Shown one piece after another: positions 14,573 through 52,340 of a stretch of DNA of 64,000 nucleotides (positions are counted from its first letter, which is position 1; every line of letters starts with the position of its first letter). Under the pieces are notes generated by a model. The model was given only the letters and a program-made list of their open reading frames with translations. It did not search any database and was not told where the DNA came from. Made by a program: the position numbers and the translations under genes. The stretch lies in NCBI RefSeq assembly GCF_056746865.1, contig NZ_CM163382.1; one strand, written 5' to 3'.

Positions 14573-14585
14573 CTTATTATAATAA

Positions 14586-14616
14586 GCGCAAGGGTAAACG
14601 TTCCTTGCGCTTTCTT
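14586..14616 (+). terminator. Rho-independent terminator after uxuR
   Basis: GCGCAAGG-GTAAACGTT-CCTTGCGC hairpin followed by TTTCTT. Confidence 0.55.
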
Positions 14617-14712
14617 AAATTAAGAAGTCGCAATGAGTATTACTTTGTAAATTGCAGGGTATTGTTTAGCTATCTGTATAACCTGAATGTTAGTACTCAT
14701 TCTTCCTGGTAG

Positions 14713-30797: not shown

Positions 30798-30973
30798 GCT
30801 GTATTCCTTATGTGGACCATACAGAGAGAAAAACCGGTACAGATGAGGCTAAAAAACCGGATGCAGATGCTGTTTTAACCTGTCTGTATGTTAAATAAAA
30901 GTAATATTTGAATCTGTATTGTGAACTGCCAGAAGGTGGATGATGAAGCCTCTGAAAGATGAGGAGGTAGCAG

Positions 30974-31138
30974 ATGGAATTTCACGAAAACAGAGCTAAA
31001 GCGCCGTTTATCGGCTTGGTGCAACTCTGGCAGGCGGTGAGGCGTTGGCGGCGGCAAATGCAGACCCGACGCGTGTTACAGCAGATGAGTGATGAGCGGT
31101 TGAAGGATATCGGGTTACGCAGGGAGGATGTGGAGTGA
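30974..31138 (+). CDS. yjiS: Small DUF1127-family protein YjiS (54 aa)
   Basis: ATG at 30974 preceded by GAGGAGG; translation MEFHENRAKAPFIGLVQLWQAVRRWRRQMQTRRVLQQMSDERLKDIGLRREDVE, an Arg-rich DUF1127-like peptide. It is below the ORF-track length cutoff. Confidence 0.7.
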   Translation: MEFHENRAKAPFIGLVQLWQAVRRWRRQMQTRRVLQQMSDERLKDIGLRREDVE

Positions 31139-31588
31139 GGGGGGATATAGATTTATATATAATAAAACGTTTTTATGTTTTTAAATTAAGTTATAAAAAT
31201 TTTCCCGAGACAATTCATCAATAGGTATGGAGTGTACAGGAATATCTTCTTCACTAACCTCTTTAAACTCATGTCGATAACGGTCAAAAAACGCACAGTG
31301 ATTACTTGTGTTTTTTGACTGACTTTACAACTCTCATTATTCGCTATTGTGCAGTTTCTCTAATTGTTTTATACCCTGGAAAGTTAAATGTCAGCTACTG
31401 AATACTTTTTGATTGTTTGAGATTTATTTTCATTTGAAATTATAAAATCAGGTGATAAATGAGTTGTGATTAATAGATGGTTGATATCATTTTTATCTAA
31501 AATTGATTTATAGTATCGACCTGAAAAAATAGTTGTTGCCGCCTGAGTAACTATACAATATTCTGAAAGGTTTTCTTTCAAATTAGAA

Positions 31589-34500
31589 ATGTTGTGGGGT
31601 TTTGTTTTTGTATCTTTTATCTCTAAGGAGCTTGCTTTGGGTCAATCAGAATACATTTCATGGGTAAAATGTACTTCCTGGCTAAGTAACTTTGTGAATC
31701 TTAGAGGGTTGAGACAACCGGATGGCCGTCCTCTTTATGAATATCATGCAACCAATGATGAATATACCCAATTAACGCAGCTACTCCGTGCAGTCGGTCA
31801 ATCACAATCTAATATATGTAATAGGGACTTTGCTGCCTGTTTTGTTCTTTTTTGCTCTGAGTGGTACCGCAGGGATTATGAACGGCAATGCGGATGGACG
31901 TGGGACCCTATATATAAAAAAATAGGGATTTCATTCACCGCCACAGAGCTTGGTACTATCGTACCGAAAGGGATGGAAGATTACTGGCTGCGCCCAATTC
32001 GATTTTATGAATCTGAACGACGCAATTTTCTCGGAACATTATTCAGTGAAGGTGGTTTACCTTTCCGGCTACTCAAAGAATCAGACAGTCGCTTTCTGGC
32101 TGTTTTCTCCAGGATCCTTGGACAATATGAGCAAGCAAAGCAGTCAGGTTTTTCTGCCCTTTCGCTGGCAAGAGCTGTCATAGAAAAATCAGCGCTGCCA
32201 ACTGTTTTTAGCGAAGATACCTCTGTAGAACTTATCAGTCATATGGCTGATAACCTCAATTCCTTAGTACTTACTCACAACCTAATAAATCACAAAGAAC
32301 CAGTACAACAGCTTGAGAAGGTTCACCCTACCTGGCGAAGCGAGTTTCCAATACCGTTAGATGATGAAACAGGAACGCATTTTTTGAATGGACTGCTATG
32401 CGCAGCCTCTGTAGAGGCTAAGCCTCGACTACAAAAAAATAAGAGTACGCGTTGCCAATTCTATTGGTCAGAAAAGCATCCAGATGAGCTTAGGGTGATA
32501 GTATCTCTTCCGGACGAAGTTTCCTTTCCTGTAACAAGCGAGCCGTCAACTACGCGCTTTGAACTTGCCATTTGTGAAGATGGTGAGGAAGTCTCTGGCC
32601 TTGGGCCAGCCTATGCTTCTCTGGAAAACAGACAGGCAACAGTTCGATTACGTAAAAGCGAAGTGAGATTTGGCAGGCAAAATCCATCGGCAGGTTTGTC
32701 GTTAGTGGCTCGTGCTGGAGGGATGATTGTTGGGAGCATTAAACTTGATGACAGTGAAATTGCCATTGGTGAGGTGCCGTTAACCTTCATCGTTGATGCA
32801 GATCAATGGCTGTTACAGGGACAGGCTTCTTGCAGTGTGCGAAGCAGCGATGTTCTGATTGTGCTCCCTCGGGATAATAGCAATGTTGCTGGTTTTGATG
32901 GCCAATCGAGGGCAGTAAACGTATTAGGACTAAAAGCACTACCTGTGAAGGGATGTCAGGACGTTACAGTTACAGCAAATGAAACTTATCGGATTCGCAC
33001 CGGAAGAGAACAAATCAGCATCGGAAGGTTTGCTCTAAATGGAAAGCGTGCAAGCTGGGTTTGTCATCCAGATGAAACATTTATTGGTGTACCAAAAGTC
33101 ATTTCTACACTACCGGATATTCAAAGCATTGATGTAACGCGTTACCTGAGCGGAATTTCAATTGAGCAATGTCATATACAAGAGATGCTGGGGGCTCAAT
33201 ATCTTTCTATCCGTAATAGTAAGAATGAAACGCTCTTGCGTCGCAAAATCGGTATTTTGCCTGCTGATTTCAGTATTGAGATAAAAGGTGGAATACACGC
33301 AAATGAAGGCACTATCGTAATCACCACACAGCATCCTTGTGTAGCAAAACTTAAAGATAAAACATTGGAGGCTACACGTAAGCGTACTGAGGGGCGAACA
33401 GAGATACAACTCAAAGCGGAAGGGGTACCTCCGGCATTTATTACATTACAAGTTCTGCCTAATTTGGCGGCTGACCCCATCGATATTGAGTTACCTTTTC
33501 CCGCTAAAGGCTGTCTCGCTCTTGATGTAAACGGACGTCCTCTGGATAAAAACATTACGCTGCATGATCTGCTGGGTTCCAGAGCGTTTCTGTTCTCCAG
33601 AAATGGCGAGCCGACAAGATATACATTGCAGTTGCATTTGCGCTCCGTTAGTGGATTACAGGCATGGCACGAATGGTGTTATACGGCGTTGAGCGATCGT
33701 CCTGTTGAATTGAATCTCTATAGTCTGCGCGAACATATTGAGAACCTGATTTCACTTGAGGCAGGTATTGACCAGGTTGTTGAGATGCGTATTACGGGGG
33801 CGGGTGTGGTCATGGCCTGGCAAATTCGTCGCTATAAATACAGTCTGCGCTATGATTATGAAAAAGAACTATTACTCAGCCAGTCAGTGAACCATCGTGC
33901 TGGACAGATTCCTTCCCCCGTTATCATGCTGTTAAGTGAACCCGAGAGGAAATCCATCCCCTTAGCATCAAGAATGAGCGAGGGAGTGCCTGTCGGTGAA
34001 TATGAGTTGAGCTCAATCGTTAACAAAAATGGACCGTGGTTGGTTGTCCCTAAACCGGGTGAAGAGATGGCTTTTCGTCCCTGCTTCATTCGTGGCGAAT
34101 CTTCGTTACCGGTAGAAGAAAGCAACATCCGCTCATTGCAGAAAGCGACCCAGCTTTTTAATCCACAGGCAGAAGTTAATACCATCACACTGGTTCTCGG
34201 ACAGATGGCTAACGATCCTGCCCATTCCGGCTGGCAATTTATGCGTAGCCTGTACGATCAATTTGGTTATTTACCACTGGCAACCTTTGAAGTATGGCGT
34301 GCACTGGTGCAGCATCCGCAGGCATTGGCAATGTCGCTCTTCAAATTTGAAATGTCAGCAGAGTACCTGAGTCGTATTGAGAATGAGTTCCCTATTCTAT
34401 GGGAGTTTTTCCCCATCTTTGAGATCAAAGCGGCATCTGAGCGTTTCAAATTGTTCCTGAGCCAAAAAGGTGCACCGGAGGAAACCCAGAAATTACTGGT

Positions 34501-34927
34501 TACTAATATGTTTCAACGGCTGGGGCTCGTGTTCCCGACATATGCCGATGAAATTGAGAAATGGTTAAGTAACGGACATCTCCCCCCGTCTATTCCTGAG
34601 TCTTTTGTCCACGTGTGGTATCAGGAGCTTTTACGTGAGCATAGTGAAGCTCAATGGCCAGAGTACGGCAGCAAGCGGCTGCATAGCTGGATGGCATCAC
34701 AAAAAAATCCAGTGATTGGTATTAATCCTGACGCAAATCACCGCTATTCCGTGGCCTTGTTACCCGTCTTCGCTGCAGCTGTGGCAAGCGGAAATGCTTC
34801 TTTTGAATCTGTATTTGACCGTAAACCCGGTGCCGTATTTTTCCTGAGGCAAGTCAGGGATTTCGATTCCCGCTGGTTTAAGGCCATCTTCCAGTGCAGC
34901 CTGTTGCGTTATGTTGCTAAAAAATAA
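31589..34927 (+). CDS. Large protein of unknown function (up to 1112 aa), first gene of a two-gene candidate defence operon; DruH-like by architecture
   Basis: Long uninterrupted ORF ending 12 bp before the helicase gene. No P-loop, nuclease or methylase motif recognised by eye. Coding sequence is visibly AT-richer than its neighbours. An alternative TTG start at 31637 has an AAGGAG RBS 6 nt upstream. From memory this corresponds to a full-length version of the yjiT fragment of K-12. Confidence 0.75.
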   Translation: MLWGFVFVSFISKELALGQSEYISWVKCTSWLSNFVNLRGLRQPDGRPLYEYHATNDEYTQLTQLLRAVGQSQSNICNRDFAACFVLFCSEWYRRDYERQCGWTWDPIYKKIGISFTATELGTIVPKGMEDYWLRPIRFYESERRNFLGTLFSEGGLPFRLLKESDSRFLAVFSRILGQYEQAKQSGFSALSLARAVIEKSALPTVFSEDTSVELISHMADNLNSLVLTHNLINHKEPVQQLEKVHPTWRSEFPIPLDDETGTHFLNGLLCAASVEAKPRLQKNKSTRCQFYWSEKHPDELRVIVSLPDEVSFPVTSEPSTTRFELAICEDGEEVSGLGPAYASLENRQATVRLRKSEVRFGRQNPSAGLSLVARAGGMIVGSIKLDDSEIAIGEVPLTFIVDADQWLLQGQASCSVRSSDVLIVLPRDNSNVAGFDGQSRAVNVLGLKALPVKGCQDVTVTANETYRIRTGREQISIGRFALNGKRASWVCHPDETFIGVPKVISTLPDIQSIDVTRYLSGISIEQCHIQEMLGAQYLSIRNSKNETLLRRKIGILPADFSIEIKGGIHANEGTIVITTQHPCVAKLKDKTLEATRKRTEGRTEIQLKAEGVPPAFITLQVLPNLAADPIDIELPFPAKGCLALDVNGRPLDKNITLHDLLGSRAFLFSRNGEPTRYTLQLHLRSVSGLQAWHEWCYTALSDRPVELNLYSLREHIENLISLEAGIDQVVEMRITGAGVVMAWQIRRYKYSLRYDYEKELLLSQSVNHRAGQIPSPVIMLLSEPERKSIPLASRMSEGVPVGEYELSSIVNKNGPWLVVPKPGEEMAFRPCFIRGESSLPVEESNIRSLQKATQLFNPQAEVNTITLVLGQMANDPAHSGWQFMRSLYDQFGYLPLATFEVWRALVQHPQALAMSLFKFEMSAEYLSRIENEFPILWEFFPIFEIKAASERFKLFLSQKGAPEETQKLLVTNMFQRLGLVFPTYADEIEKWLSNGHLPPSIPESFVHVWYQELLREHSEAQWPEYGSKRLHSWMASQKNPVIGINPDANHRYSVALLPVFAAAVASGNASFESVFDRKPGAVFFLRQVRDFDSRWFKAIFQCSLLRYVAKK

Positions 34928-34939
34928 AAAGGAATAAGG

Positions 34940-37900
34940 ATGACTACACGCTATTTTTCGTCACTTATTGAACAATCGTTGTCTCGTTCAACTGAAGCAA
35001 CGCTCAGTATCATGGGCGTTACCAACCCGCAGCTGCGTGAACATCTCGCGCAACAAATGGGGGCTGATTGTGGGAAACCGGGCTCATTCCTTGCTTCTCC
35101 GGTATTCCAGCAAATGTTTGGCTGGAAGGAGTCAAACCACACGATGCGCAGCCTGACGGAAGGCAACGCATTGTTGAGCAAAGCAGTGGTTGATTCACTG
35201 GATGATCAGAATAATGGCCGGTACCGGTTTGGTGCTGACTGGAGGCCTTTTACGCACCAGTTAGCCAGTTGGAAAGCTTTGCTGGAAAAGAAACATTCAG
35301 TGGTGGTAACCAGTGGTACGGGTTCAGGTAAAACGGAATGTTTTATGGTACCGGTGCTGGAAGATCTTTACCGGGAACTGCATGAAAATGGCAACAATCC
35401 GTTGGTCGGTGTCCGAGCCCTTTTTCTCTATCCATTGAACGCCCTGATTAATTCACAGCGCGAGCGTCTGGATGCCTGGACGCGTGGTTTTGGTACAGGG
35501 ATCCGCTACTGCCTTTACAACGGCAACACCGAAAACCTACACGCTTCGGTAAAAAGCGAACAGGCAAAAAGGCCGAATGAGGTGCTCTCGCGCGAAAAAA
35601 TGCGTGAAGAACCTGCGCCGATTCTGGTGACCAACGGCACGATGCTGGAATATATGATGGTTCGCCAGGTCGACGCCCCGATTATCCAGCAATCTAAAGC
35701 ACAAAAATCACTACGCTGGATTGTACTGGATGAAGCGCATACCTATGTAGGGTCGCAGGCCGCTGAACTGGCGCTCCAGCTGCGTCGTGTGATGACCGCG
35801 TTTGGCGTGACACCAGATGACGTGCGCTTTGTCGCGACCTCTGCGACCATTGCCGGCAGCGACGCTGAAAAGCAGCTGAAAAAATTTCTCTCTGAATTAT
35901 CCGGTATCCCGCAGGAGCGCATCGATGTTCTGGACGGAAGTCGGGTGATTCCTGAACTGGAACCATCCAAAAACGTTTCTGTTCCGTTAGACGAGATAGA
36001 GCAAATACCTGATCTGGATCTAAGAGATAAAAATGATAATAAAATTAAAGGGATAAGTCCTGAGCGCTTTTATGCGCTTACGCATTCCCCCGAAGCGCGT
36101 TACATACGTGAGATGTTGGTCAAACAGCCCAATCCGATGAAGCTGGATGAGATAACAGAGCGGTTACACGTGCTGACAAAACAGCATTACAGCCAGCAGG
36201 AAGTACTGCGTTGGATCGATGTCTGTTCAGGGACTCAACCTAATGCAAAGGATCCCGCATTTCTTAAAGTCAGGGCGCATATCTTCCAGCGTAATACCCA
36301 GGGAATATGGGCTTGTGTTGATAAAGATTGCAGATTAAAGCACGGTACACCGCTCGACAAAGGCTGGCCCTTTGGCTATGTGTATGTGAACCAGCGACAA
36401 AATTGTGACTGTGGAAGCCCTGTATACGAAGTTGCATTCTGTAATGATTGTAATGAGCCTCATCTTCTGGCACGGGACAAAAAGGGCAAACTAGTCCAGT
36501 GGGAAAATAAAGGTGGCGATGAATTCTCTTTGCAGGATGAAGTACCTGTTGAACATGACGCTACAGAAGAAAAAGTCGAAAAAGAGAACAGTTTTCAGCC
36601 TCCGTTGATTATTGCCGCAGGAGAGACCAGCGAGGCAGGTTATACCCTACAACGCCTCGACCGTCAGACGCGCCGTATTGGCGTTATTAACAATGACAGC
36701 ATTCCGCTGATTATTAATGATATTGAACAGGTTTGTAGTGCCAGTGGCTGTGGCTACAGAGGCATGAGTGGGAAACAGCCCTTCCGGCGTGCACTATTAG
36801 GTGGGCCATTTTACGTTACTAATATCGTGCCCACCGTTCTAGAGTATTGTCAGGACTTTACCAGTGATGAAGGCAAAGAGGGCGTCGGACCAGATTCGTT
36901 GCCAGGACGAGGTCGTCGACTCATCACCTTTACAGACAGTCGACAAGGGACAGCCCGAATGGCGGTGCGTATGCAGCAAGAAGCAGAACGCAGTCGCTTA
37001 CGCGGAAGCGTAGTCGAAATTCTCAGCTGGCATCAAAGGACGCAAACGTCTACAGCGCCGAATGCCAATGCCGATCTGGAAAAATTAGCGGCCAGGGCGA
37101 AGCAAGCCCGTGAGCAGGCAGAAGAATATCGAAGCTGGGGAATGCCAGACCAGGCGAAATTGTCACAAGCACAGGCTGAACAGCTTGAACAGGCTTATCA
37201 GGCTGCAACCGGTGGGAAAGCTGCGACTATCCTGGTATCCCGAACCTGGACGGAGATGGTTAACGAGCTTAAAGAGAGAGCCGATATCCGCGGGCCGGTT
37301 CTGCAATATAACCATTATCTTAAGCCTGAAGTGTTTAATGAAAACGGCGGCCCCCTTAAGCTTTCTGAAATGTTGTTGTTCCGGGAATTCATGCGTCGCC
37401 CTAAACGGACTAACAGCCTGGAAACACAGGGGCTGGTTCAGGTTGGTTACCAGGGGCTGGAGAAAATACATAAGAGCCCCTTGCACTGGCAGGAAAAAGG
37501 ATTAACGCTGGATGACTGGCGCGATTTTCTCAAGGTTACGTTGGATCATTACGTTCGCGAGAGCAACTTCACACAGCTGGATGATGAGCTGAAAAACTGG
37601 ATTGGTAGCCGTTTTTCATCAAAATTCGTCCGTAACCCGGAATCAAAAGATCCTGAAGATAATCAGAACAGACGCTGGCCTCAAATTCGTAATGGCAACG
37701 TATCCCATCGTTTAGCGAAGTTGCTGATGCTGGGGGCTGGATTCAAAACCGTCAATGCGGCAACTATTGATATTATCAATACATGGCTGAAAGAAGCATG
37801 GGCCCAACTTACCGGACCGCTTGCAGTACTGAAACCCGATGGCAACCGTTTTTATTTACCGAAAGAGCATATGACTTTTTCTTTAATCACGGATGCCTGG

Positions 37901-40900
37901 ATTTGCCCGGTAACCAATAAAATCCTGGATACGGCTTTTAAAGGCTTAACCCCTTATCTGCCTACCCATATTTCGTTCGAGCATCTTACCCTGGCGCAAT
38001 ATGACACTTTTGTCGCGCAGAAAGTCACAATGCCGGAAATCTGGAAGCTGGATCGTTCACAGGAAGACTACGCAGAGGGTCTGGCAAAAGCACGCGACTG
38101 GGTCAGCCATGATCCGCTGATCGCACAATTGCGGTCGGAAAACGTCTGGACAGACATTAACGATCGTGTCGTGGAAGGCGGCTTCTACTATCGTACTGCC
38201 GAGCACTCTGCCCAGCAGTCGTCAGAACGTCTGCAAAGCTATGAAAAGATGTTCAAGAATGGGCAACTAAATGTTCTCAACTGTTCCACCACCATGGAAA
38301 TGGGGGTTGATATCGGGGGTATTACTGCGGTGGTAATGAACAACGTACCGCCACATCCGGCCAACTATTTACAGCGCGCCGGGCGAGCCGGGCGTAGTAA
38401 AGAATCACGCGCGATCTCTTACACCCTATGTAAAGGTAACCCACACGACCAGCAGGTTTTTGCCAACCCGCTCTGGCCATTTGAAACCATGATCCCGGCA
38501 CCCATGGTCGCGATGAACTCCGCCCGACTGGTGCAACGTCACGTCAATGCATTATTACTGTCCGACTTTTTATGTAACGTTATTGGCGAAACCGATAAAG
38601 AAAAAACCAGCCTCGATAGCCTCTGGTTTTTCGGTGAAGATGACGGGCAGTCAAAATGCGAACGCTTTAAAATCTGGCTGGAACGTCCGGTTCTTGATAT
38701 CGACACGGCGCTGGAACGGCTGGTGAAAGGTACGGCGTTGCATGGTGCAAGAGCCGAATATCTGCGGGATAAAACAATCAACGCGATCACCTTCCTGCAA
38801 CAGCGGTGGCTCTCCGTTTATCGCGATCTCGTGACACAGGAGCGTGAGTCGCAGCCGCAAACGCCTTATCGTAAGCGCATAGAGCTGGAGAAGAAACGGC
38901 ACTGTGGCGAGTATCTGCTGCGCGATCTGGCTGCCAGAACCTTCCTGCCGGGATACGGTTTCCCGACAGATGTAGTGACGTTTGATAACTTCACGATGGA
39001 AGATTATATCCGCGAAAAATCGCAGAAAAGTCGTGATAAAAAGGACCGTGAAGATAACGTTTCCCGTTATAAAGGATTACCTTCCCGTAACCTCGGTGTT
39101 GCCATTCGTGAATATGCACCGGGAGCAGAGATCATCCTTGATGGCCGTGTCTTCCGCTCTGCCGGTGTCTCACTGCACTGGCACAACATTAATGCTGATA
39201 CCAATGAAGCCCAGCGTCTGGATTGCGCCTGGCGCTGTCACAAATGCGGGACCATTGGCTATGAAGAGGGGATGAGCAGTTCCGGGATGCTCTTTTGCTC
39301 CAATAGCGCCTGCGGCGAAAAAATAATCATGGATAATCGCCGTCAGGTGCTGCAGCCTGCCGGGTTTGTCACCGATGCACACGCTCCGGTAACGAACAAT
39401 ATTGAAACCATGAAATTCGTCCCGGTTGTCCCCGCGTGGGTCTTTGTTAAAGCAGAGCCCGTACCGTTGCCTAACCCGCTAATGGGTTATATGGCTTCTG
39501 GGGCTGATGGGCATGTTTTCCAGCAAAGTTTGGGGGAAGGTGGACACGGTTATGCATTGTGTCTGAGCTGTGGCCGTGCTGAGTCGATGCTGAATGAAAA
39601 TGATGCGCCGAAAAGTATGGAAGCTCACTATCCACCGCGTCCGGGTAAAGCGGATCGCGACAGCCAGAATCATCGTCTGATTTGCCCCGGTTCGACGGCA
39701 CTCATGAAGAATGTCACCCTGGGCGCACTGGCGCGTACCGATGTCTTTGAAATGGTTCTGCGCAAACCGCAAAACGGCGAGTATCTGCCAGATAACACAG
39801 AGGAGGGGCGGATTGTTGCCATGACTCTGGCGGTTGCTCTGCGTCAGGCGCTGGCGGGCGTTCTGGGTATCTCCGCCGCAGAACTCGGCTATTCTGTACG
39901 TCCGGTCAGACTGGAGGATGGGCAATCGGTATTAGCCGTACAGCTTTATGATGTGATCAGCGGTGGTGCAGGTTTTGCCTCCAGCGCACCGGTACACATT
40001 GAAGCTATATTGCAGGGAATGGTGAAACAGTTAGGCTGCCGCCATTGTGAGACTGCATGTAGTGAATGCCTGCTTGATTCCCAGACTCGCCACGATCACG
40101 ATTTGCTGGATCGCAAAGCGGCGCTGGCCTGGCTTGGCGATGACTTCACGTATTACATCGGTTTACCGGATGAAGAGACATTCTCGCTGCCGGATGCCCG
40201 CTACTGCCCTGGCGCCATTGGCGATACGATTCGCCGGGCGATTAACGAAGGCGCTGAAAAGCTCACCCTGTGGATGACCGGCGCGCCCAATGAGTGGGAT
40301 TTATACGCACGTCAGTTCCGCGCGGCGGTTCAGAACTATCGGCTAAAAGACAACGTCGAGGTCGATCTTGTTATTCCTACGGGAGTGGATGACCCGGACC
40401 TGTTGCATGAACTATCGCAATTTACTGCGCTGGGTGTGCGGCTGTGCCATGTTGAACAGGATCTGCAATTACCGATCGTTGCCCAGGTCACCTTTACCGA
40501 TCGCGTGATGACGCTGGCCTCTCGCAGCCAGCAGGCAACGATTCCGGGGCCGGAGTGGCACCTGAATGACGAACTGGTGGTGCGTAGTCTCGGTTATAAA
40601 ACGGTAGAACTGAACGAGTTTATTCTGCCGGCTAAAGCCACCAACGCTGTCGAGCGGGTCAAAGACATTCAGATCCACAAACAGTTGAATGGACCACTGT
40701 CGCAGTTTGGGCAACGCTTCTGGGACGTGCTGTTTAACGACCATGAAGAAGCGCAGTCACTGATGAATAACACGCGAATTACCGGCGTTCACTATACCGA
40801 TCGCTATCTGCAAAACCCGGTTGCGCTGGCGTTGTTGGGATCAATTCTGAGACCGCTAAAAACAAAGCTGACCGATGGCGCTGAAGTGACGCTGGATACG

Positions 40901-41284
40901 CTATTTAAAGATAAAGATCGCCCCGGTAACCGGCCTTTCCATGACTGGATGAGCATAGCGGATTTTCAGGATTTCGCTGATCAGTGGTTTGCTGCTGCGC
41001 TGGGCAGGCCGGTAGAACTGACGGTGTTCGACTCGCCGCGCGATATCCCTCACCATCGTAAACTGACGGTGACTTTTGAGGATGGTCAGGTATTGAAGAT
41101 CCGCTTCGATCAGGGGATGGGCTACTGGCGCATCAACTTTTCATCGCAATGGCATTACTTTGATTTCCGCGATGACGTTTCTTTCCAGTTAGTCAAAATG
41201 GCTCAGGCCTGCAAGGAAGGGAATGTCGCCAACAGCGAAGAGAGTTGGGCAACGGATGTGCTGGTGGAGGTGATCGCCTCCTGA
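34940..41284 (+). CDS. Giant (2114 aa) superfamily-2 DEAH-box helicase with Zn-ribbon / DUF1998-like Cys clusters; DruE-like by architecture
   Basis: ATG at 34940 with AAGGA RBS. Walker A GTGSGKTE (35315-35338), motif II IVLDEAH (35720-35740), motif [10 protein letters not shown] (38372-38395), Cys clusters CAWRCHKCG (39224-39247) and [11 protein letters not shown] (40037-40069). Operonic with the upstream 1112-aa gene. Confidence 0.85.
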
Positions 41285-41291
41285 TGATGAG

Positions 41292-41326
41292 CCGCTCCCG
41301 ATGTGGTGTCGGGAGCGGTATTTTCT
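41292..41326 (+). terminator. Rho-independent terminator of the two-gene operon
   Basis: CCGCTCCCGA-TGTGGTG-TCGGGAGCGG hairpin directly followed by TATTTTCT, 8 bp after the helicase stop codon; placed between the convergent helicase gene and mcrC. Confidence 0.7.
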
Positions 41327-41340
41327 ATAAAACTTACCGC

Positions 41341-42387
41341 TTATTTGAGATATTCATCGAAAATGTCGAGTAATTCTTGATGTATACACGGCCATTCCTG
41401 ACCTAAATTGACGGTACACAAGCCAATATCGAAGCCATTAATTTTATAACGATGTTTCACTGCGGTATCTACGTGGGGATATATTAATAATCCCCCTATG
41501 TTTTCGCCATTTTCAGGCTTTAACGACCATAAGTAATTCATCAGTTGATAAAGATTTTGCGAATGAAATTTTTCTGTTCCCATTCGTCGTGAAAAAATGC
41601 TCTTATAGTATTTGGCGTCAACGATAAGTATTTTTTCTGATGAGCGAATGGTGATGTCAGTTTCCATTCGAGGTAACAAATTAAGTGACTGATCCGATAT
41701 ACTCGATGCATCCCATTTTAAATAAGAGCGGGTTGTGTTTGCAGACGTTAATTCACGACGGCAAAATTCATAAAGAAACTTTTGATAAAGTAATGACATC
41801 TCTTTTTCGTTTCTTTCAAAATCATAGAAACGGTAGTGTCCTTTGTTTTGACCTGGAATAGAATTATTGACGATGAATTTGCAGACACTGATAACGAATT
41901 TATAATAACGCGTATTTTTTCCGCCATTCAGATAGCTGAAATGCTGCGGAGTTAAATGAAGAGTGCTAATGCCCGGTAATTTTCTATAAAGTGAACGAGC
42001 TTCATCTCTGATAGTTGAATTTAACTTTTCATGCTTAATTAATATGGCTAATGTGCTTTTTATAATTCGGTTAGCCAGCGTGTCTTCATTAAGCATATCA
42101 AAAGTACTGACGGTTTTCCCATGATTAAGATGGAAGCCGCGTATTGTTTTAGCAAACTCTATTCGCCCTTTGATGCCAGGAATGATCTCGGTATTAGGAT
42201 TGTAATCAAGCTCAAGCCCTCGGCGTGAAAGCTGTAAAACCCCTTTATTTAATACATACCCCAGGATATCAAGAAGATTGTTACCGGGTATGGCTTCAAG
42301 GTTTGCCTGCTTAATTTCCTGTAAATAACCCCATGCATAGGTAAGCATGTAATAGATATTACGGACAGGTATCACGGGCTGTTCCAC
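41341..42387 (-). CDS. mcrC: 5-methylcytosine-specific restriction enzyme McrBC, endonuclease subunit McrC
   Basis: 348 aa from a GTG start (VEQPVIPVRNIYYMLTYAWGYLQ...) sharing 1 nt with the mcrB stop codon; the track ORF extends 10 codons upstream to an ATG at 42417. Confidence 0.85.
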   Translation of the reverse strand: MEQPVIPVRNIYYMLTYAWGYLQEIKQANLEAIPGNNLLDILGYVLNKGVLQLSRRGLELDYNPNTEIIPGIKGRIEFAKTIRGFHLNHGKTVSTFDMLNEDTLANRIIKSTLAILIKHEKLNSTIRDEARSLYRKLPGISTLHLTPQHFSYLNGGKNTRYYKFVISVCKFIVNNSIPGQNKGHYRFYDFERNEKEMSLLYQKFLYEFCRRELTSANTTRSYLKWDASSISDQSLNLLPRMETDITIRSSEKILIVDAKYYKSIFSRRMGTEKFHSQNLYQLMNYLWSLKPENGENIGGLLIYPHVDTAVKHRYKINGFDIGLCTVNLGQEWPCIHQELLDIFDEYLK

Positions 42388-43766
42388 TATGAGTCCCCTA
42401 ATAATTTGTTGGTCCATTTCTGTTGTTTATAGGGGTCATCAAAGAAATATTCTTCGAGTAAAGGGGCGATATCCGTCATCACAATTTCATTAAGCCATTG
42501 CGTATCCGGAGAGGTGCCATCTTCCAACCCACAGCAGAAGTAACTATGCCCAATGCGGAATCCTTTCCCAAGGATAGTGGCCTCTTTGCTGATTTCCTGG
42601 TTCAACTCGTTCATTTTTTGGCATAAAGACTCAACAAATGAAGGTTCTGCTTTTTTATTCAGTAAAAAATTCCGGAACTGTGGTGTATCAAAACCTGGCT
42701 CAATATCTATGAAAGAAAATCGTCTGCGTAGGGCATAGTCAACAACGGCCAGAGAGCGATCGGCAGTATTCATTAAACCGATGATATAAACATTCTCCGG
42801 GACATAGAATCGTTCTTCATCGTTTTCGGAGTAGGTTAGGGGAACAGACCAGTTTTCACCTCGTTTATCATGTTCCATTAACATCATCACTTCGCCAAAT
42901 ACTTTACTGAGATTGGCACGATTGATTTCATCTATAATAAAAATATACTTTTTCTCTGGCTGCTCTTTAGCTTGCTGACAAAAATTGTAAAATATGCCGT
43001 CTTTACGTCGGAAGCCGACGCCATTCGGACGATAGCCCTGTATAAAATCCTCATAGCTATAGGATTGATGGAACTGAACCATATTGACGCGTTGCGGAGC
43101 CTTTTCTCCTGTCAGCAAGTAAGCCAGACGGCGTGCAACAAAGGTTTTTCCAACGCCGGGCGGCCCCTGGAGGATAATATTTTTTTTGATGGTTAATCGT
43201 TTGAGTATCGTCTCTATTGTGGTTTCAGGGATAAACAAATCATTTAACGCATCTTCCAGACAGTATGATTCAGTTTTTGACATAGGTGGAATAACACTCT
43301 TGCCAGAATTAAATATTAATTTATAGTCGTTGATTATGTTGTCCAGCATAGAGGCAAATCGGGTGTAATCAATACCCTGTGAGACTTTTTGGGAACAGGC
43401 GTAATAGGACTGTCCGTATTTTTTAGGATATACACCCGAAGTTGCCTGAAAATACTCTGCGATTGTTTTAGGTATGTCTGAAGAGAACTGCCATTGGGCA
43501 TGTGGTTCATTCGTGTCGCTTATACCATAAGCCAAAACCAACTCATCAAAATCTTTATAATAGAGAATAACGGGATATATACCGTTAGAAGCTTCCTGAC
43601 CTTCTCCAAGAAATGCAAACCAGGGAATAGACGTAAAATTACCATAACCGAAACTCAATTTTACTCGCAGGTTACGGTAAGACGTTGGATAATCTTTAGT
43701 GGATTGCGAACGTTGTTGCTGTGCTTGCTTAATAAATTTTTCAATCCAGGGTTGAATAGATTCCAT
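42387..43766 (-). CDS. mcrB: 5-methylcytosine-specific restriction enzyme McrBC, GTPase/DNA-binding subunit McrB (AAA+)
   Basis: 459 aa from MESIQPWIEKFIKQAQQQRSQ; Walker A GPPGVGKT and AAA+ motifs; markedly AT-rich coding sequence. Confidence 0.9.
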   Translation of the reverse strand: MESIQPWIEKFIKQAQQQRSQSTKDYPTSYRNLRVKLSFGYGNFTSIPWFAFLGEGQEASNGIYPVILYYKDFDELVLAYGISDTNEPHAQWQFSSDIPKTIAEYFQATSGVYPKKYGQSYYACSQKVSQGIDYTRFASMLDNIINDYKLIFNSGKSVIPPMSKTESYCLEDALNDLFIPETTIETILKRLTIKKNIILQGPPGVGKTFVARRLAYLLTGEKAPQRVNMVQFHQSYSYEDFIQGYRPNGVGFRRKDGIFYNFCQQAKEQPEKKYIFIIDEINRANLSKVFGEVMMLMEHDKRGENWSVPLTYSENDEERFYVPENVYIIGLMNTADRSLAVVDYALRRRFSFIDIEPGFDTPQFRNFLLNKKAEPSFVESLCQKMNELNQEISKEATILGKGFRIGHSYFCCGLEDGTSPDTQWLNEIVMTDIAPLLEEYFFDDPYKQQKWTNKLLGDS

Positions 43767-43927
43767 AAGATATGCCTTCCTCATTGCTAAGCCTCTATTA
43801 TCGCTTTCGCAACGTACTGAAACAATAGATTTTTACTGCAAAATCAGACTGGTAAATATTTACTGAGGGGGAAAGTTTCTATTGAGTCAGTGGAAGGCTC
43901 CCGGTGGTTAACCGGGAGTAAACGCTG

Positions 43928-44269
43928 TTACGCGACTTTCTGTTTACCGGCAATCACTCCAATAAACGCCTGCACCTGCTTTTGTTTACGCGCCGACAGT
44001 TTGCACACCTGGCGTAGCGACTGCATCAGTTCGCTCTCCTCGGCGGCGGGTGGTTGGGCGGTGAGGACAATACAGCCTTCCATCACTTTGACATCTACCG
44101 CCGTGCCAGTGGCAAAACCGGCGGCTTCCAGCCACTGACCTTTCAGGGTGATGGCGGGAATACGGCTGTAATCCGGGTAGCGACTCGCATAACCGACGGT
44201 GACATGACGGTTATTTGCCGGGGAGACTTCTGCTTCGAACGGTTGTGCAATAGAATGCGTGTCAGTCAT
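43928..44269 (-). CDS. symE: SOS-induced toxin-like protein SymE (type I toxin-antitoxin, AbrB-fold)
   Basis: 113 aa from [34 protein letters not shown]; located between mcrB and hsdS; the track ORF is extended upstream. Confidence 0.8.
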
Positions 44270-44338
44270 AACTGCTATTCTCCAGGAATAGTGATTGTGA
44301 TTAGCGATGCGGGTGTGTTGGCGCACATCCGCACCGCG
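44262..44338 (+). ncRNA. symR: Candidate antisense sRNA SymR (RyjC) overlapping the symE 5' end; coordinates approximate
   Basis: Established knowledge that a roughly 77-nt cis-antisense RNA overlaps the symE ribosome-binding site and start codon. The exact ends cannot be fixed from sequence; a 9-bp stem hairpin at 44309-44332 lies within the region. Confidence 0.25.
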
Positions 44339-44346
44339 CTAAATAC

Positions 44347-44362
44347 CTGTATATATCATCAG
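44347..44362. promoter_or_regulatory. Candidate LexA (SOS) box in the symE promoter
   Basis: CTGTATATATCATCAG matches the CTGT-N8-ACAG consensus with one mismatch, about 80 bp upstream of the symE start. Confidence 0.5.
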
Positions 44363-44496
44363 TAAATATGGGGAAAGTCCAGCTAAAAATAGAATAAAAT
44401 GGGCAATTTCTGGAATGATTTAAATATATTTATGTGGGTTATGATTGGCGTGAAATAATAAAAAGCGCACCGGAAAGGTGCGCCAGAAAATAATGT

Positions 44497-45891
44497 TCAG
44501 GATTTTTTACGTGAGGCTTTTTTACCCCCGCTAGCTGCGCGTTCAGCTTTGATTTTTTCCAGCAACGCGGCGGCGCTGTTTTCTCCGCTGATCAAATCCG
44601 GGTTTTCGGCCCGCCACTGGGCGGTAAGTTCACCACGGAACGCTTTTGCCAGGATGGATTGCGTCAGGTTGTTGACGCGGGCTAAGGCGTTGTTGACCTG
44701 TTTTTCTATGGTGTCGGCGTAGGCGAAGAGTTGCTCGACGCGGCGAACGATTTCGGCTTGTTCTTTTACTGGAGGTAATAAAACAACTTGGGATTTGATA
44801 TCTTTTCCTGAAATACCTTTTTGACCAGAAGTTGTTTTCACGCAGTTCATCATTGCATTTCGTGCTGAGGGGGATGAAAAAAATATTTCGATATATTCTG
44901 GTAAAGCATCTTTGGTTAATCGAGCTCGAATAAGTTTATCAGGATATAGCAAATTTTGATGTTGTAATTTTTTCAATAACCCACAAACACCAACAAATTC
45001 TAAACTTCCGTTATAGCGAGTAAATAAAAGATCTCCATCTTGTAATTTGTGGCGGTTTAGTTCACTTTCTGAACATTCTAGAAACCGAATATCGTTTTGA
45101 TCTACATGGCCAGCACGTACAGAACTAATGCGTAGTATTGGATGACCAACACCACTTTCATTTGGCTTTGATGAAAGACCATTACGTAATTCAGTTAAGA
45201 TAGATTCAAAATTTAACTTCTTAAATACAGAATGTTGCGGCTCAAAATTACGCCATTTTTCTGTCAATTTTCCATTAACTGCGCCCCCCAATACCGCTTG
45301 ACGAAAACGTTTCAGGATTTGTGGGATTTGCTCAAAACGTGCTTTGGTGCTGTCTACCTGCGCCAGCAGCGTATCGAGTTTTTCAGCGATGATTTTTTGT
45401 TCGGCAAGTGGTGGGATTGGTATATTTATCAAATCAAAGCTTGCCGGCTTAATATTATTAATATTTGCACCAGCAGAAAGTGATGAAATTTTGTTTCGAT
45501 AAAGAGAAGATTTTGTGAAATGAGCAATAAAACCAGAAAATATAAGTTTTTCAGGACGTAATACACCGCAAAATGCGCCGAAACTACATTCAAATGGTAG
45601 ATGCTGATGTGCGGATTTACCAACTACGGATTTGCTCCCTGATGACATTGCAATAACAATATCTTCAGGAGATATTTTTTGATTTTCTTTAACAAGATTT
45701 TTAGGAACAAAAACCAAGTCCGTAGTATCAAACTTGCCATTCTGAATATTGTTCGCACGGATAAGAGGCAAATAATCATCTTTTAGATAATTTATTGCCT
45801 GCTCTTTTTTATACGTTACTCCTCGGATTAGAGTTGTGACCGTAGATACTGGGGCGATAACCCACCCCTCCGGCAATTTCCCCGCACTCAT
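44497..45891 (-). CDS. hsdS: Type I restriction-modification specificity subunit HsdS
   Basis: 464 aa with two target-recognition domains separated and followed by conserved helical repeats; start ATG overlaps the hsdM stop (ATGA). The N-terminus MSAGKLPEGWVIAPVSTV is consistent with the EcoKI-family HsdS as I recall it. Confidence 0.88.
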   Translation of the reverse strand: MSAGKLPEGWVIAPVSTVTTLIRGVTYKKEQAINYLKDDYLPLIRANNIQNGKFDTTDLVFVPKNLVKENQKISPEDIVIAMSSGSKSVVGKSAHQHLPFECSFGAFCGVLRPEKLIFSGFIAHFTKSSLYRNKISSLSAGANINNIKPASFDLINIPIPPLAEQKIIAEKLDTLLAQVDSTKARFEQIPQILKRFRQAVLGGAVNGKLTEKWRNFEPQHSVFKKLNFESILTELRNGLSSKPNESGVGHPILRISSVRAGHVDQNDIRFLECSESELNRHKLQDGDLLFTRYNGSLEFVGVCGLLKKLQHQNLLYPDKLIRARLTKDALPEYIEIFFSSPSARNAMMNCVKTTSGQKGISGKDIKSQVVLLPPVKEQAEIVRRVEQLFAYADTIEKQVNNALARVNNLTQSILAKAFRGELTAQWRAENPDLISGENSAAALLEKIKAERAASGGKKASRKKS

Positions 45892-47477
45892 TCCTTCACC
45901 CCACCAAACGCTTCTTCCAGCAACTGACGCTGCAAATCGGCCTCATCGCTCGCCCCCAGTTCACGCATCAGCGCATCCAGTTCAGACAGCGCCTGTACCA
46001 GTTCGCCCATCGCTTCTGCCGCTAATACATCCGGCTCCGGCAGGCTGTCGGCATCAATACTGTCTTTATCTTTCAGCCAGGAGATATCCAGCGAATCGGA
46101 TTTTGCGGTGCGGATCCACTCACGGCTGAACTTGCGCCAGCGGCTGGTAGCAAGATGCTGGTCGGTGTTTTTGTTCTCTTCGCTGTCGGCAACTTCCGTC
46201 TCTTCGGCGTTAAAACTCCATTCACCTTCAGTGCGCGGGCTTAAACCGTGCGGGTCTTCGCCATACACGCGCTCAAACGGCTGCAAATGCTCGTCGGTAA
46301 ACGGTGTGCGCTTGCCGAAACTCGGCATATTGGTACGCAGGTCATACACCCACACGTCGTCGGTGCAGTTCTTATCCTGATGCGGGTTCGCCACTGTGCC
46401 TTTGGTAAAGAACAGCACGTTGGTCTTCACGCCCTGCGCGTAAAAAATACCGGTCGGCAGACGCAGAATGGTGTGCAGATGACACTTATCCATCAGGTCA
46501 CGACGGATGTCGGTGCCTTTGCCGCCTTCAAACAACACGTTATCTGGCACCACCACCGCCGCACGACCGCCGGGATGCAGCGTTTCGATAATATGCTGCA
46601 TAAAGCACAGCTGTTTGTTGCTGGTCGGGTGAACAAAGGTGCGGGTAATGTTGGTGCCTGCGGCGCTGCCAAACGGCGGGTTAGTGGCGACAATATGCGC
46701 CTTCGGCAGGTTTTCACCGTCGCTGCCCAGGGTGTTGCCCAGACGGATTGCGCCGCCGTGGTCGAGGTTGCCTTCAATATCGTGCAGCAGGCAGTTCATC
46801 AGTGCCAGACGACGGGTGCCGGGCACCAGTTCGAGGCCGATAAACGCGCGGTGGATCTGGAAATCCTGCGTGTCGCCATCAAGGTCGTCCAGATCATTGG
46901 TTTGCGACTTAACATAGCGGTCGGCTTCAATCAAAAAGCCCGCCGTACCTGCCGCCGGGTCCTGCACCACTTCACGCGGCTGCGGTTTCAGCAGATGAAT
47001 AATGGTTTTAATCAGCGGACGCGGGGTGAAGTACTGGCCTGCACCAGACTTGGTTTCATTCGCGTTCTTCTGCAACAGCCCTTCGTACATATCGCCGAAG
47101 TCATCGCGCGACTTACCGTGCGCGCCGTTGTACCAGTCCAGCGAATCCATATTGCTGACCAGTGCGGTTATTTGTTTCGGCTCGGTGATGGTGGTACTAA
47201 CATTATGAAAAACTGCCTGTACCAGCTTTTTGTCATCTTCGCCTAAATGCACGAGCATTTTTCGGTAGAACTGCAACTGCTCCTGGCCGATGCGGGATTT
47301 CAGGTCATCCCAGCGGTAACCTTCCGGCAGGTATTCCGCTTCCTGACCGGTCTCTTTACACATTTTCAAAAACAGCAGCGAGGCGAGTTCATTGACGTAG
47401 TTTTGATAGGAAACGCCGCCATCGCGCAGGTTGTCGCACAGCTTCCACAGCTTCGCGACCAGATCGTTATTGTTCAT
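45888..47477 (-). CDS. hsdM: Type I restriction-modification N6-adenine DNA methyltransferase HsdM
   Basis: 529-aa protein with N-terminal HsdM domain and methyltransferase motif (ATNPPFGSAAG, the NPPF catalytic motif). Confidence 0.92.
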   Translation of the reverse strand: MNNNDLVAKLWKLCDNLRDGGVSYQNYVNELASLLFLKMCKETGQEAEYLPEGYRWDDLKSRIGQEQLQFYRKMLVHLGEDDKKLVQAVFHNVSTTITEPKQITALVSNMDSLDWYNGAHGKSRDDFGDMYEGLLQKNANETKSGAGQYFTPRPLIKTIIHLLKPQPREVVQDPAAGTAGFLIEADRYVKSQTNDLDDLDGDTQDFQIHRAFIGLELVPGTRRLALMNCLLHDIEGNLDHGGAIRLGNTLGSDGENLPKAHIVATNPPFGSAAGTNITRTFVHPTSNKQLCFMQHIIETLHPGGRAAVVVPDNVLFEGGKGTDIRRDLMDKCHLHTILRLPTGIFYAQGVKTNVLFFTKGTVANPHQDKNCTDDVWVYDLRTNMPSFGKRTPFTDEHLQPFERVYGEDPHGLSPRTEGEWSFNAEETEVADSEENKNTDQHLATSRWRKFSREWIRTAKSDSLDISWLKDKDSIDADSLPEPDVLAAEAMGELVQALSELDALMRELGASDEADLQRQLLEEAFGGVKE

Positions 47478-47677
47478 TGTGAGTTCCGTAAATTAAGCAG
47501 CGGCCCAAATTCATCGAGCCGCAGAAGAAGAAATTGCCGAGGGTAATATACACAAAATCATTCAGGTTGCATCAAGGCGGCAAGTGAGTGAATCCCCGGG
47601 AGCGTACAGAAGTACGTGACCGGGGTGAACGAGCGCAGCCAACGCAGAGGCAGCCTGAAGGATGAAGTGTATACGTG

Positions 47678-51190: not shown

Positions 51191-51377
51191 TGTTATTAAT
51201 CCATTGCTGTGTGGGCCTGTCCAAATATTTAAGGCCCATAACGTCTTATCTTAGCTTTCTGTACCTTTCCGGACAATGACCGGAGTCACAGCAACTGACT
51301 CATTTCTAACGTGTTCGTCTATTTTGGTAGTGTTATAGTAGCCGAAAAACATCTACCTGATTCTGCAAGGATGTACT

Positions 51378-52292: not shown

Positions 52293-52295
52293 AAT

Positions 52296-52340
52296 ATCAG
52301 GCCGGATGCGGCTGCGCCTTATCCGGCCCATAACCCCTTA
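52296..52340. repeat. REP element
   Basis: GGCCGGATGCGGCTGCGCCTTATCCGGCCCATAA REP-type palindrome between mrr and yjiA. Confidence 0.55.

Follow-up and report, generated by a model that had tools for sequence, protein, structure and literature searches.

A Druantia type III-A helicase gene, druE, very probably occupies the immigration control region of an Escherichia coli chromosome

What does a single open frame of 2,114 codons encode in an E. coli chromosome, when its product carries the first motifs of a helicase near the N-terminus and the last one far downstream? The frame (34940..41284, + strand; 2,114 aa and a stop codon) lies in the 64,000-nucleotide stretch of DNA analysed here (the window), and its product is RefSeq WP_000213431.1, labelled 'DEAD/DEAH box helicase'. 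A preliminary description, made from the sequence alone, had considered the architecture unusual. It is in fact an already known one, the defining layout of DruE, the signature protein of the two-gene Druantia type III-A system, and the solved relatives share its split core, zinc clusters and C-terminal extension. With high confidence, we identify the frame as druE, co-transcribed with druH (yjiT) and encoding the large YprA/MrfA-like DNA helicase (superfamily 2) of an anti-phage system, Druantia type III-A.

The protein matches the PADLOC model DruE3 PDLC00037 along its whole length (2,701 bits; residues 1-2110 against positions 1-2053 of the 2055 in the profile), whereas the sub-model PDLC00036 scores well below it (1,088 bits) and the models of type I, II and IV DruE give partial matches only (359-540 bits). 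An alignment to PDB 9tu7, an E. coli DruE of solved structure, covers residues 5-2089 and scores 1,029 bits. Pfam recognises DEAD at 106-310 (E 1e-22), Helicase_C at 1085-1153 (E 1e-11) and MZB PF09369 at 1631-1711 (E 3.7e-9), and the succession of a RecA1-RecA2 core, an OB/connector region and an MZB (DUF1998) four-cysteine domain is that of the YprA/MrfA-like helicases. Both C-terminal PLD-like domains by which type III-A is told from III-B are present. Cas3, DISARM DrmA, DpdJ, BrxH, RecQ, Lhr and the DEAD-box RNA helicases were rejected as candidates, with partial matches to RecA domains only, far under the family cut-offs. For the YprA-family defence helicases among them, DrmA/DrmB of DISARM and DpdJ of Dpd, the matches are weak and confined to RecA regions (E 1e-9 to 1e-29); the DrmA models cover 57-95 residues only (E 1e-9 to 7e-9), and neither drmC, nor a methyltransferase gene, nor dpd genes were found near druE.

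Directly upstream, on the same strand, lies druH (31589..34927, +; longest reading frame 1,112 aa), the partner gene in Druantia type III. Its product matches PADLOC DruH3 PDLC00049 in a profile search (1,827 bits, residues 19-1112) and the NCBIfam family YjiT_fam / STY4851-ECs_5259 (1,258 bits against a cut-off of 150), and an identical E. coli record labels it 'protein YjiT'. The RefSeq start of druH is at 31637, 16 codons downstream of that of the longest frame. The gap between druH and druE is 12 nt and contains AAGGAA. A terminator-like hairpin (41291..41319, +) begins 7 nt past the druE stop, between druE and mcrC; it has a 13-bp stem with 8 GC pairs, followed by ATTTTCT, and was the one site found against 0.3 expected. 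A simple scan found no promoter-like site upstream of druH. The pair stands between yjiS on the upstream side and mcrCB-symE-hsdSMR-mrr on the downstream side, druE being convergent with its downstream neighbour mcrC, and the neighbours include none of druA-D, druF/G or druM. These surroundings are a restriction/defence island, the E. coli immigration control region.

Could such a gene belong to housekeeping DNA repair, its product being a non-immune helicase akin to MrfA/YprA or Lhr? Structurally the core does resemble MrfA best, and NCBIfam models of Lhr-like and ligase-associated DEXH helicases give weak partial matches, but the latter are limited to the RecA domains (47-122 bits against cut-offs of 850-1,496), whereas the match to DruE is full-length. 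The pairing with druH, amid mcrBC, hsdRMS and mrr, also argues against this role, as does the distribution of the gene: of 5,426 complete E. coli genomes, only 231 have druE at a coverage of at least 80%, and in others, including K-12, the locus is deleted or interrupted by insertion sequences, as befits accessory defence and not a core repair gene. We consider a housekeeping function extremely improbable. The same decay elsewhere, with two internal deletions in the K-12 copy and insertion sequences inside the locus in several genomes, might suggest that druE is a functionless remnant in the window too. This is very improbable, as both reading frames are uninterrupted here, all catalytic motifs and zinc ligands are intact, and the 9.7-kb druH-druE pair is 100% identical across many independent isolates.

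String searches of the 2,114-aa protein located GTGSGKTE at 126 (motif I), motif Ia at 163, IVLDEAH at 261 (motif II, with DEAH at 264-267), FVATSAT at 297 (motif III), LITFTDSRQ at 661 (a motif IV-like strand), motif V at 1117 and QRAGRAGR at 1145 (motif VI). Motifs I and II are thus near the N-terminus and motif VI far downstream, 884 residues from motif II, just as had been read from the translation. Chance would not remotely account for the set of motifs and clusters. The superfamily-2 ATPase motifs (Walker A GSGKT, DEAH and motif VI QRxGRxGR) are intact and invariant in a 39-sequence alignment; the conservation set for the core comprised 38 homologues, 38-89% identical to DruE over the aligned segment, residues 95-1200. 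The core had been taken to be split by one very large insertion. Large inserted domains do split it, but in two blocks, one at the RecA1/RecA2 junction (~340-620) and the other within RecA2 (~668-1078), downstream of the motif IV-like strand at 661. In the AlphaFold model of residues 95-1200, two-RecA targets align over 340-410 residues at 3.1-3.9 Å, against 175-190 for single-domain targets; the region of motif VI, with a strand-helix pattern at 1086-1164, packs with strand 661 beside RecA1. Motif VI is thus predicted to be part of a RecA-like fold, the point on which the initial reading might have failed, and in the model the interruption of a two-RecA core by accessory domains is genuine. 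A whole-model Foldseek search against the PDB (to April 2026) returned helicase cores only, MrfA first, with DruE entries not among the matches. The structure prediction and fold search that had been proposed recovered the two-RecA core and, in the C-terminal extension, a PLD fold, but did not report the inserted domains separately.

The order of the domains is that published in four 2026 preprints, which put helical and double-zinc domains in the gap that separates RecA1 from RecA2, insert a dimerisation bundle and a duplex-binding 'Cap' into RecA2, and have the core followed by an OB/zinc region, an MrfA-type MZB and two PLD-like domains. RecA1 (~residues 101-335; 35240..35944, +) carries motifs I, Ia, II (DEAH) and III. 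It is followed by a small helical domain (~345-432; 35972..36235, +), with five helices at 350-430 in the model, which from its order and size probably corresponds to the published WH / five-helix domain. The beta-rich double zinc-binding domain (~440-620; 36257..36799, +) contains cysteines 459, 464, 489, 491, 501, 504, 599 and 604, which would form two sites, and an acidic loop (~531-551, pLDDT<50 in the AlphaFold model) where the published 'lock' loop sits; the published dZBD / ZBM_L domain consists of two zinc motifs and the lock loop (10.64898/2026.05.12.722862; 10.64898/2026.05.13.724758). The first part of RecA2 (~621-667; 36800..36940, +) has a helix at 622-635 and a strand at 661-665 in the model and includes LITFTDSRQ; F664, D666, R668, Q669 and G670 are invariant in the core alignment. 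Next come a long-helix stalk with the dimerisation bundle (668-760; 36941..37219, +) and the duplex-binding / Cap domain (~761-1078; 37220..38173, +), both inserted in RecA2, the second part of which (~1079-1175; 38174..38464, +) holds motifs V and VI.

The Ala/Gln/Glu-rich stretch earlier proposed as a coiled coil, which runs from AERSRLRGS at 682 to 745, falls within the stalk and bundle, a region (668-760) composed of 18% A, 14% Q, 11% R and 10% E. The alternative of a low-complexity linker was rejected because three long helices are predicted there (668-703, 713-732 and 736-756; pLDDT ~62-95, below the neighbouring domains) and because the region aligns to the dimerisation (PD/DD) subdomain of E. 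coli DruE; the stretch thus appears to be a real helical module. Deletion of this subdomain in E. coli DruE abolishes dimerisation and defence (10.64898/2026.05.12.722862; 10.64898/2026.05.13.724758). The idea that the insertion houses a nuclease finds no counterpart in the solved relatives, which have helical, double-zinc ('lock' loop), duplex-binding/Cap and dimerisation domains at these places.

All the cysteine clusters of the preliminary description were located by string search (CDCGSP at 489, CNDCNEP at 501, CAWRCHKCG at 1429, CSNSACGEK at 1453, CLSCGRAES at 1541 and a last one at 1700), and their reading as zinc-binding is upheld by conservation, 20 Cys and 1 His of the clusters being invariant in 38 homologues. 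The exception is C1429 of CAWRCHKCG, which is kept in 5% of homologues only and is therefore not a ligand. The ligands group as 8 + 4 + 4 (CCHC) + 4, corresponding to five conserved predicted zinc sites; the inserted zinc domain and the OB/zinc region have two each and the MZB has one, the same count as in 10.64898/2026.05.13.724758. The extended winged-helix / connector and OB-fold zinc region (~1176-1630; 38465..39829, +) aligns with 9tu7; its boundaries are approximate, being derived from the positions at which E. coli DruE was truncated (1171 and 1502, corresponding to ~1185 and ~1518 here). It has two predicted zinc sites, C1433/C1436/C1453/C1458 and C1541/C1544/H1563/C1582, all eight ligands of which are invariant, and the OBZ is reported to hold two zinc motifs (10.64898/2026.05.13.724758). 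The MZB (DUF1998) domain (39830..40072, +) contains the four-cysteine site C1700/C1703/C1707/C1710, also invariant throughout, and the equivalent cysteine pairs are needed for defence in E. coli DruE (10.64898/2026.05.13.724758). The later clusters had all been likened to a DUF1998/MrfA module; this holds for the last one (1700-1710, Pfam MZB), but the two preceding clusters belong to the OB-fold/zinc region.

Beyond the last cluster cysteine lie 404 residues (1711-2114), an extension of about the expected 400 residues. No motif had been recognised in it, and it had been proposed as a seat of the effector activity; a nuclease-type fold is indeed predicted there. The AlphaFold model of 1711-2114 (pLDDT 92) is an alpha/beta sandwich with the PLD fold, whose best structural match is MITD1, a non-enzymatic PLD-fold protein, in agreement with the published match (10.64898/2026.05.13.724313). 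In PLD-like domain 1 (~1750-1890; 40187..40609, +) conservation is sparse (W1786 is kept in 96% of homologues, D1787 in 76%), and the domain has been predicted to be inactive ('PLDi') (PMC13192584). In PLD-like domain 2 (~1895-2114; 40622..41281, +), Y1952, D1954, Y1956, P1960, H2038, R2040, D2057 and G2059 are invariant, and R1955 is kept in 91%, in a set of 45 homologues with identities down to 22% over the C-terminal region; DRY, HxR and DxG make up its invariant pocket. The canonical signature HxK(x)4D(x)6GSxN is absent: the pattern H.K....D matches nowhere in DruE, and the sole H.K (2039-2041) keeps its lysine in 18% of homologues, the invariant motif being H2038-x-R2040 ... D2057-x-G2059 instead. 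Compared with the PLD-superfamily nucleases (Nuc, BfiI, NgoAVII, SauUSI, Zucchini, PLD4) and with MITD1, DruE thus has HxR in place of HxK, lacks GSxN and the aspartate four residues past the basic residue, and possesses invariant Y-x-D-R-Y and D-x-G motifs that have no canonical PLD counterpart; its two PLD-like domains are fused in one chain, and the second alone is conserved.

The closest studied system within the species is the O-island 172 lineage (DruE of E. coli ATCC 8739 / EDL933 / NCTC12923; PDB 9tu7-9tuc), of 2,104 aa against 2,114 aa here, with a collinear full-length alignment. Domain order, zinc ligands (including the MZB four-cysteine site) and the druH partner are all shared, its clamp histidine H1698 aligns with H1718, and its PLD-like domain 2 also has the DRY and HxR motifs. 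The two proteins are, however, only ~34% identical overall and ~28% in the C-terminal region, and the O-island 172 gene sits in an island with Zorya II and ARMADA II, whereas the present one lies by mcrBC/hsdRMS. A database homologue from Pseudomonas aeruginosa is 59% identical over the full length. Numbering the published P. aeruginosa active-site residues directly on this homologue gave mismatches, because the published DruE differs from it and is shorter; placed by motif and spacing instead of direct alignment, the published D1917-R1918-Y1919 and H1999 / R2001 (10.64898/2026.05.13.724313) correspond to D1954-R1955-Y1956 and H2038 / R2040, while D1740, H1830, R1951 and S2022 found no confident equivalents. 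MrfA / YprA of Bacillus subtilis (PDB 6znp, 6znq, 6zns) has 751 aa, lacks every domain that DruE has inserted between or within the RecA domains, as well as the dimerisation bundle and the PLD-like domains, and acts with the exonuclease MrfB in mitomycin-C repair, not in phage defence.

Protection requiring DruH, DruE and the DEAH motif has been demonstrated for E. coli OI-172, P. aeruginosa and M. smegmatis systems, which are other lineages than this one. We know of no published experiments on the exact immigration-control-region lineage; further Druantia papers used type I or an unspecified E. coli type III system. From relatives that are 34% and roughly 59% identical, studied by cryo-EM and biochemistry (10.64898/2026.05.12.722862, 10.64898/2026.05.13.724758, 10.64898/2026.05.13.724313, PMC13192584), one may propose that DruE dimerises via the helical bundle inserted in RecA2 and loads onto single-stranded DNA that is exposed where phage replication or recombination intermediates have 3' tails or forks. 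The tracking strand would be threaded beneath a roof of winged-helix, OB/zinc and MZB domains while the duplex is held on a platform of the double-zinc and Cap domains, ATP driving 3'-to-5' unwinding. DruH would be required alongside; reports on it differ, describing a binder of single-stranded DNA, a sensor or a 3'-5' exonuclease. Phage DNA would be cleared without killing of the host cell. That PLD-like domain 2 itself degrades the unwound DNA in this lineage is the least certain step, somewhat likelier than its contrary.

On that step the literature is divided. Two groups saw no nuclease activity and found the PLD domains dispensable (10.64898/2026.05.12.722862; 10.64898/2026.05.13.724758), and two others found ATP-dependent nuclease activity (10.64898/2026.05.13.724313; PMC13192584); the groups are also at odds over the preferred overhang (3' or 5'), the state of the dimer (active or autoinhibited) and the role of DruH. 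DruE might thus be a helicase or translocase only, with PLD-like domains that are structural, regulatory or involved only in cross-talk with other defence systems, in which case DruH, or host nucleases like RecBCD, would destroy the phage DNA. E. coli DruE still protects after loss of one or both PLD domains and showed no reproducible nuclease activity, which argues for this, as do the missing canonical HxK(x)4D, the non-enzymatic MITD1 as best structural match, and the absence of the PLD-like domains from some type III DruE proteins (10.64898/2026.05.12.722862). Yet a dispensable scaffold is hard to square with an invariant pocket in homologues so distant. By motif and spacing, the pocket residues match those whose mutation ended both defence and ATP-dependent DNA degradation in P. 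aeruginosa DruE (10.64898/2026.05.13.724313), and another laboratory observed cutting of long DNA by E. coli DruE (PMC13192584). We regard a purely helicase role as a substantial possibility, if rather doubtful. Our own suggestion is also tentative, and we would put it a little short of an even chance: in every III-A member, the E. coli protein included, the Y-x-D-R-Y / H-x-R / D-x-G pocket, which does not vary within the III-A family, would serve as a true nuclease site of a non-canonical PLD type.

The discovery value of the locus is small, since a standard defence-system profile recognises druE and the family has already been dissected by cryo-EM. The value is mainly one of annotation: what RefSeq calls 'protein YjiT' and 'DEAD/DEAH box helicase' is an intact Druantia type III-A system, of which the yjiT and yjiV of K-12, genes that had long been puzzling, are the ruins. 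A second, divergent DruE lineage of E. coli is thereby identified, with ~34% identity to the studied one and without neighbouring Zorya or ARMADA systems, and this stand-alone lineage could help decide if the PLD-like domains have nuclease activity. If the pocket is active in all III-A members, the published disagreement would reflect assay conditions or phage choice and not biology, and the lineage, free of adjacent Zorya II / ARMADA II, would offer a clean setting for resolving the nuclease dispute.

The ORF at 34940..41284 (+), druE, together with the ORF immediately upstream of it, is by profile comparison a two-gene Druantia type III system. This assignment follows from two matches. druE is a single uninterrupted frame of 2,114 codons, whose product is matched end to end by PDLC00037, the PADLOC model of type III DruE (2,701 bits; protein residues 1-2110, profile positions 1-2053 of 2,055); the DruE models of Druantia types I, II and IV give partial matches only. 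The adjoining ORF, druH (31589..34927, +, 1,112 aa), matches DruH type III with 1,827 bits and the NCBIfam family YjiT / STY4851-ECs_5259 with 1,258 bits (cut-off 150). The two genes lie on the same strand, separated by 12 nt that include AAGGAA, and a strong terminator-like hairpin is found 3' of druE (41291-41319). A promoter for this putative operon is not obvious by consensus scanning, with no sigma-70-like match in the ~450 bp upstream of druH (window 30800-31700), for which shuffles expect 3.1. The true start codon of druH is uncertain. The longest ORF begins with the ATG at 31589 and the RefSeq start lies 16 codons later, at 31637 (position 20049 of L001, the annotated identical E. coli record); the PADLOC profile aligns only from residue 19 onward.

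The preliminary description of DruE was accurate overall, as judged by motif searches and the Pfam DEAD, Helicase_C and MZB matches. String searches locate GTGSGKTE, IVLDEAH and FVATSAT at residues 126, 261 and 297, and [11 protein letters not shown] and QRAGRAGR at residues 1117 and 1145, so that motifs I-III do fall within the first 300 residues and motifs V-VI some 880 residues downstream. The Pfam domains are DEAD (106-310), Helicase_C (1085-1153) and MZB, the MrfA zinc-binding domain formerly called DUF1998 (1631-1711). Also present, as described, are the Cys clusters (489-504, 1429-1458, 1541-1544, 1700-1710), the Ala/Gln/Glu-rich stretch (682 to 756) and the C-terminal extension of roughly 400 aa, with 404 residues beyond the last Cys.

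Cryo-EM structures and biochemistry of DruE were reported in May 2026 by Hu et al. (10.64898/2026.05.12.722862), Himpich et al. (10.64898/2026.05.13.724758), Loeff et al. (10.64898/2026.05.13.724313) and Wu et al. (PMC13192584); in a 2025 preprint (PMC12458937), Bell et al. had predicted the domains and divided the type into III-A, with two PLD-like domains, and III-B, without them. According to these five reports, an MrfA-like core (RecA1, RecA2, winged helix, OB fold, connector and MZB) is surrounded by DruE-specific domains. These are a small helical domain, a double zinc-binding domain that bears a 'lock' loop, a 'Cap' (also called duplex-binding) domain into which a helical dimerisation subdomain is inserted, and two C-terminal PLD-like domains. 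Our DruE aligns over residues 5-2089 (1,029 bits) with a 2,108-residue PDB 'DEAD/DEAH box helicase' (9tu7 and five sister entries), the numbering of which, minus a four-residue tag, is that used for E. coli DruE in the 2026 preprints (Walker A 117-122, DEAH 251-254; Hu et al.). The match to 9wae and related entries, a 1,970-aa 'Helicase', is limited to residues 1108-1413 (104 bits); that protein is probably either a DruE from a different Druantia type or some other defence helicase of the YprA family.

For residues 95-1200, an alignment of 38 homologues gave an AlphaFold model with pLDDT 84.5 and pTM 0.80. It has RecA1 up to residue ~335, five helices (350-430), a beta-rich region (440-620) with a disordered acidic loop (531-551) roughly where the published lock loop lies, a helix followed by the strand LITFT (661-665), three long helices (668-703, 713-732, 736-756), a mixed domain up to residue ~1078 and a strand-helix series carrying motifs V and VI (1086-1164). 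Motif VI is thus predicted to belong to a RecA fold, a true RecA2 made of residues ~621-667 and ~1079-1175. The core is interrupted, as had been proposed, but by two insertions rather than one, at the RecA1/RecA2 junction and inside RecA2. The presumed coiled coil is indeed modelled as helical, its three long helices corresponding to the stalk and dimerisation bundle; E. coli DruE without this bundle is a monomer and provides no defence (Hu et al.).

We searched the same 38 homologues (38-89% identity over residues 95-1200) for Cys and His residues that never vary. Eight invariant ligands in the inserted zinc domain (C459, C464, C489, C491, C501, C504, C599, C604) are enough for two sites, and three further invariant sets are C1433, C1436, C1453, C1458; C1541, C1544, H1563, C1582; and C1700, C1703, C1707, C1710. 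The predicted zinc sites number five, in agreement with the published count of two each for the inserted zinc domain and the OB/zinc region plus one for MZB (Himpich et al.). C1429, which the preliminary description counted in a Cys cluster, is kept in only 5% of homologues and is not a ligand.

Residues 1711-2114 have 753 relatives among 1.84 billion representative proteins. Among the best 150 of these, the match is C-terminal in all the long proteins (about 2,000-2,250 residues), and for this reason the module appears to be confined to the DruE family; the shorter proteins look like fragments of the long ones. The AlphaFold model of the extension, from an alignment of 45 relatives (22-83% identity over the region; pLDDT 92), contains two alpha/beta modules, at residues ~1750-1890 and ~1895-2114. 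Striking conservation is confined to the second, in which Y1952, D1954, Y1956, P1960, H2038, R2040 and D2057 are invariant, and R1955, W2003, G2059 and W2063 nearly so. The canonical HxK(x)4D motif occurs nowhere in the whole DruE protein. The DRY and HxR residues of the second module are 84 residues apart, compared with 82-88 in family representatives and 82 in the published P. aeruginosa DruE (D1917-R1918-Y1919; H1999, R2001); both are likewise present in the E. coli DruE of 9tu7. A nuclease or sensor had been suspected in the unrecognised parts of the protein, a guess that proved half correct. The extension does have a nuclease-type fold, but the insertion is made of DNA-handling and dimerisation domains.

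Every catalytic and structural motif of an active DruE is intact here, as is the partner druH, and the predicted folds are in keeping with those of the solved relatives. By analogy with these, DruE would dimerise through the inserted helical bundle and engage single-stranded DNA at 3' tails or forks. The zinc and Cap domains would provide a platform that holds the duplex, while the tracking strand would be threaded across RecA2 and RecA1, beneath a roof of winged-helix, OB/zinc and MZB domains, with ATP-dependent unwinding in the 3'-to-5' direction. Defence would need DruH and the DEAH motif, and would not kill the host cell.

The published work is divided as to the effector. For Hu et al. and for Himpich et al. 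the PLD domains are dispensable, and the latter obtained no reproducible in-vitro nuclease activity; a role of these domains other than as a nuclease is a serious alternative, to which we give rather less than even weight. ATP-dependent degradation of DNA is reported, on the other hand, by both Loeff et al. and Wu et al., the former with a requirement for pocket residues. In P. aeruginosa DruE, D1917A and R1918A abolish phage defence, and D1740A abolishes both defence and in-vitro DNA degradation. The pocket of the second PLD-like domain is invariant across the whole family, which argues for a conserved function, and we therefore lean slightly towards its being a nuclease. The groups are also at odds over which overhang is the activating one and whether the dimer is an active or an autoinhibited form. 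DruH, too, is seen in different ways, as a binder of single-stranded DNA that ATP inhibits, as a sensor or as a 3'-5' exonuclease.

The 9.7-kb druH-druE pair is 100% identical to its counterpart in many complete E. coli chromosomes. In FDAARGOS_497, which is 99.998% identical to window 11589-61284, the pair is labelled 'protein YjiT' and 'DEAD/DEAH box helicase' (WP_000213431.1) and is flanked by yjiS and mcrC-mcrB-symE-hsdS-hsdM-hsdR-mrr, i.e., the immigration control region. The remainder of this region (window 41341-52300) is present and apparently intact here, with mcrC (41341-42417, -), mcrB next to it, symE, hsdS, hsdM and hsdR (47678-51190, -) on the strand opposite to druE, mrr (+) beyond hsdR, and symR, the antisense RNA of symE, at 44264-44340 (Rfam RF01809, 95 bits). 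G+C content is low across window 42-46 kb (0.41-0.44), and also at 1-2000 (0.385) and 14001-16000 (0.406). In window 1-12000, the ORFs would fit, by their sizes and arrangement, the fim operon, gntP and uxuA, the genes that precede this region in K-12. An intact rpnD, coding for an Rpn-family recombination-promoting nuclease of 306 aa, lies at 28221-29141 (+); the gene at this position in K-12 MG1655 carries a pseudogene flag.

At least 80% of the pair is found in one place in 231 of 5,426 complete genomes, and fragments in another 443 (674 genomes with any match). Several otherwise identical copies are broken by IS5, IS1, IS1414 or IS3, and the overall pattern suggests frequent inactivation of the system within E. 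coli. K-12 MG1655 has the same locus, with 99.8-99.95% identity flanking two clean internal deletions, of 3,017 bp (window 33146-36162) and 2,182 bp (38313-40494), which removed DruH from residue 519 onward and DruE residues 1-407 and 1126-1851. Given these deletions, what remains of this Druantia III system in K-12 is yjiT (505 aa) and yjiV, a pseudogene.

The type of this DruE is fully known, and the gene is already caught by standard defence annotation. Its closest relatives are enterobacterial copies (Pantoea, Pluralibacter, Leclercia; 80-89% identity); identity is 59% to a P. aeruginosa homologue and, as estimated by a hand count of HMMER match lines, about 34% to the solved E. coli DruE. 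It differs from the studied E. coli lineage in its PADLOC sub-model and in its chromosomal site, with no adjoining Zorya II or ARMADA II. We found no published direct test of the immigration-control-region DruE lineage in the literature, the only remark of Wu et al. on the YjiT family being that its E. coli representative sits in that region (PMC13192584).
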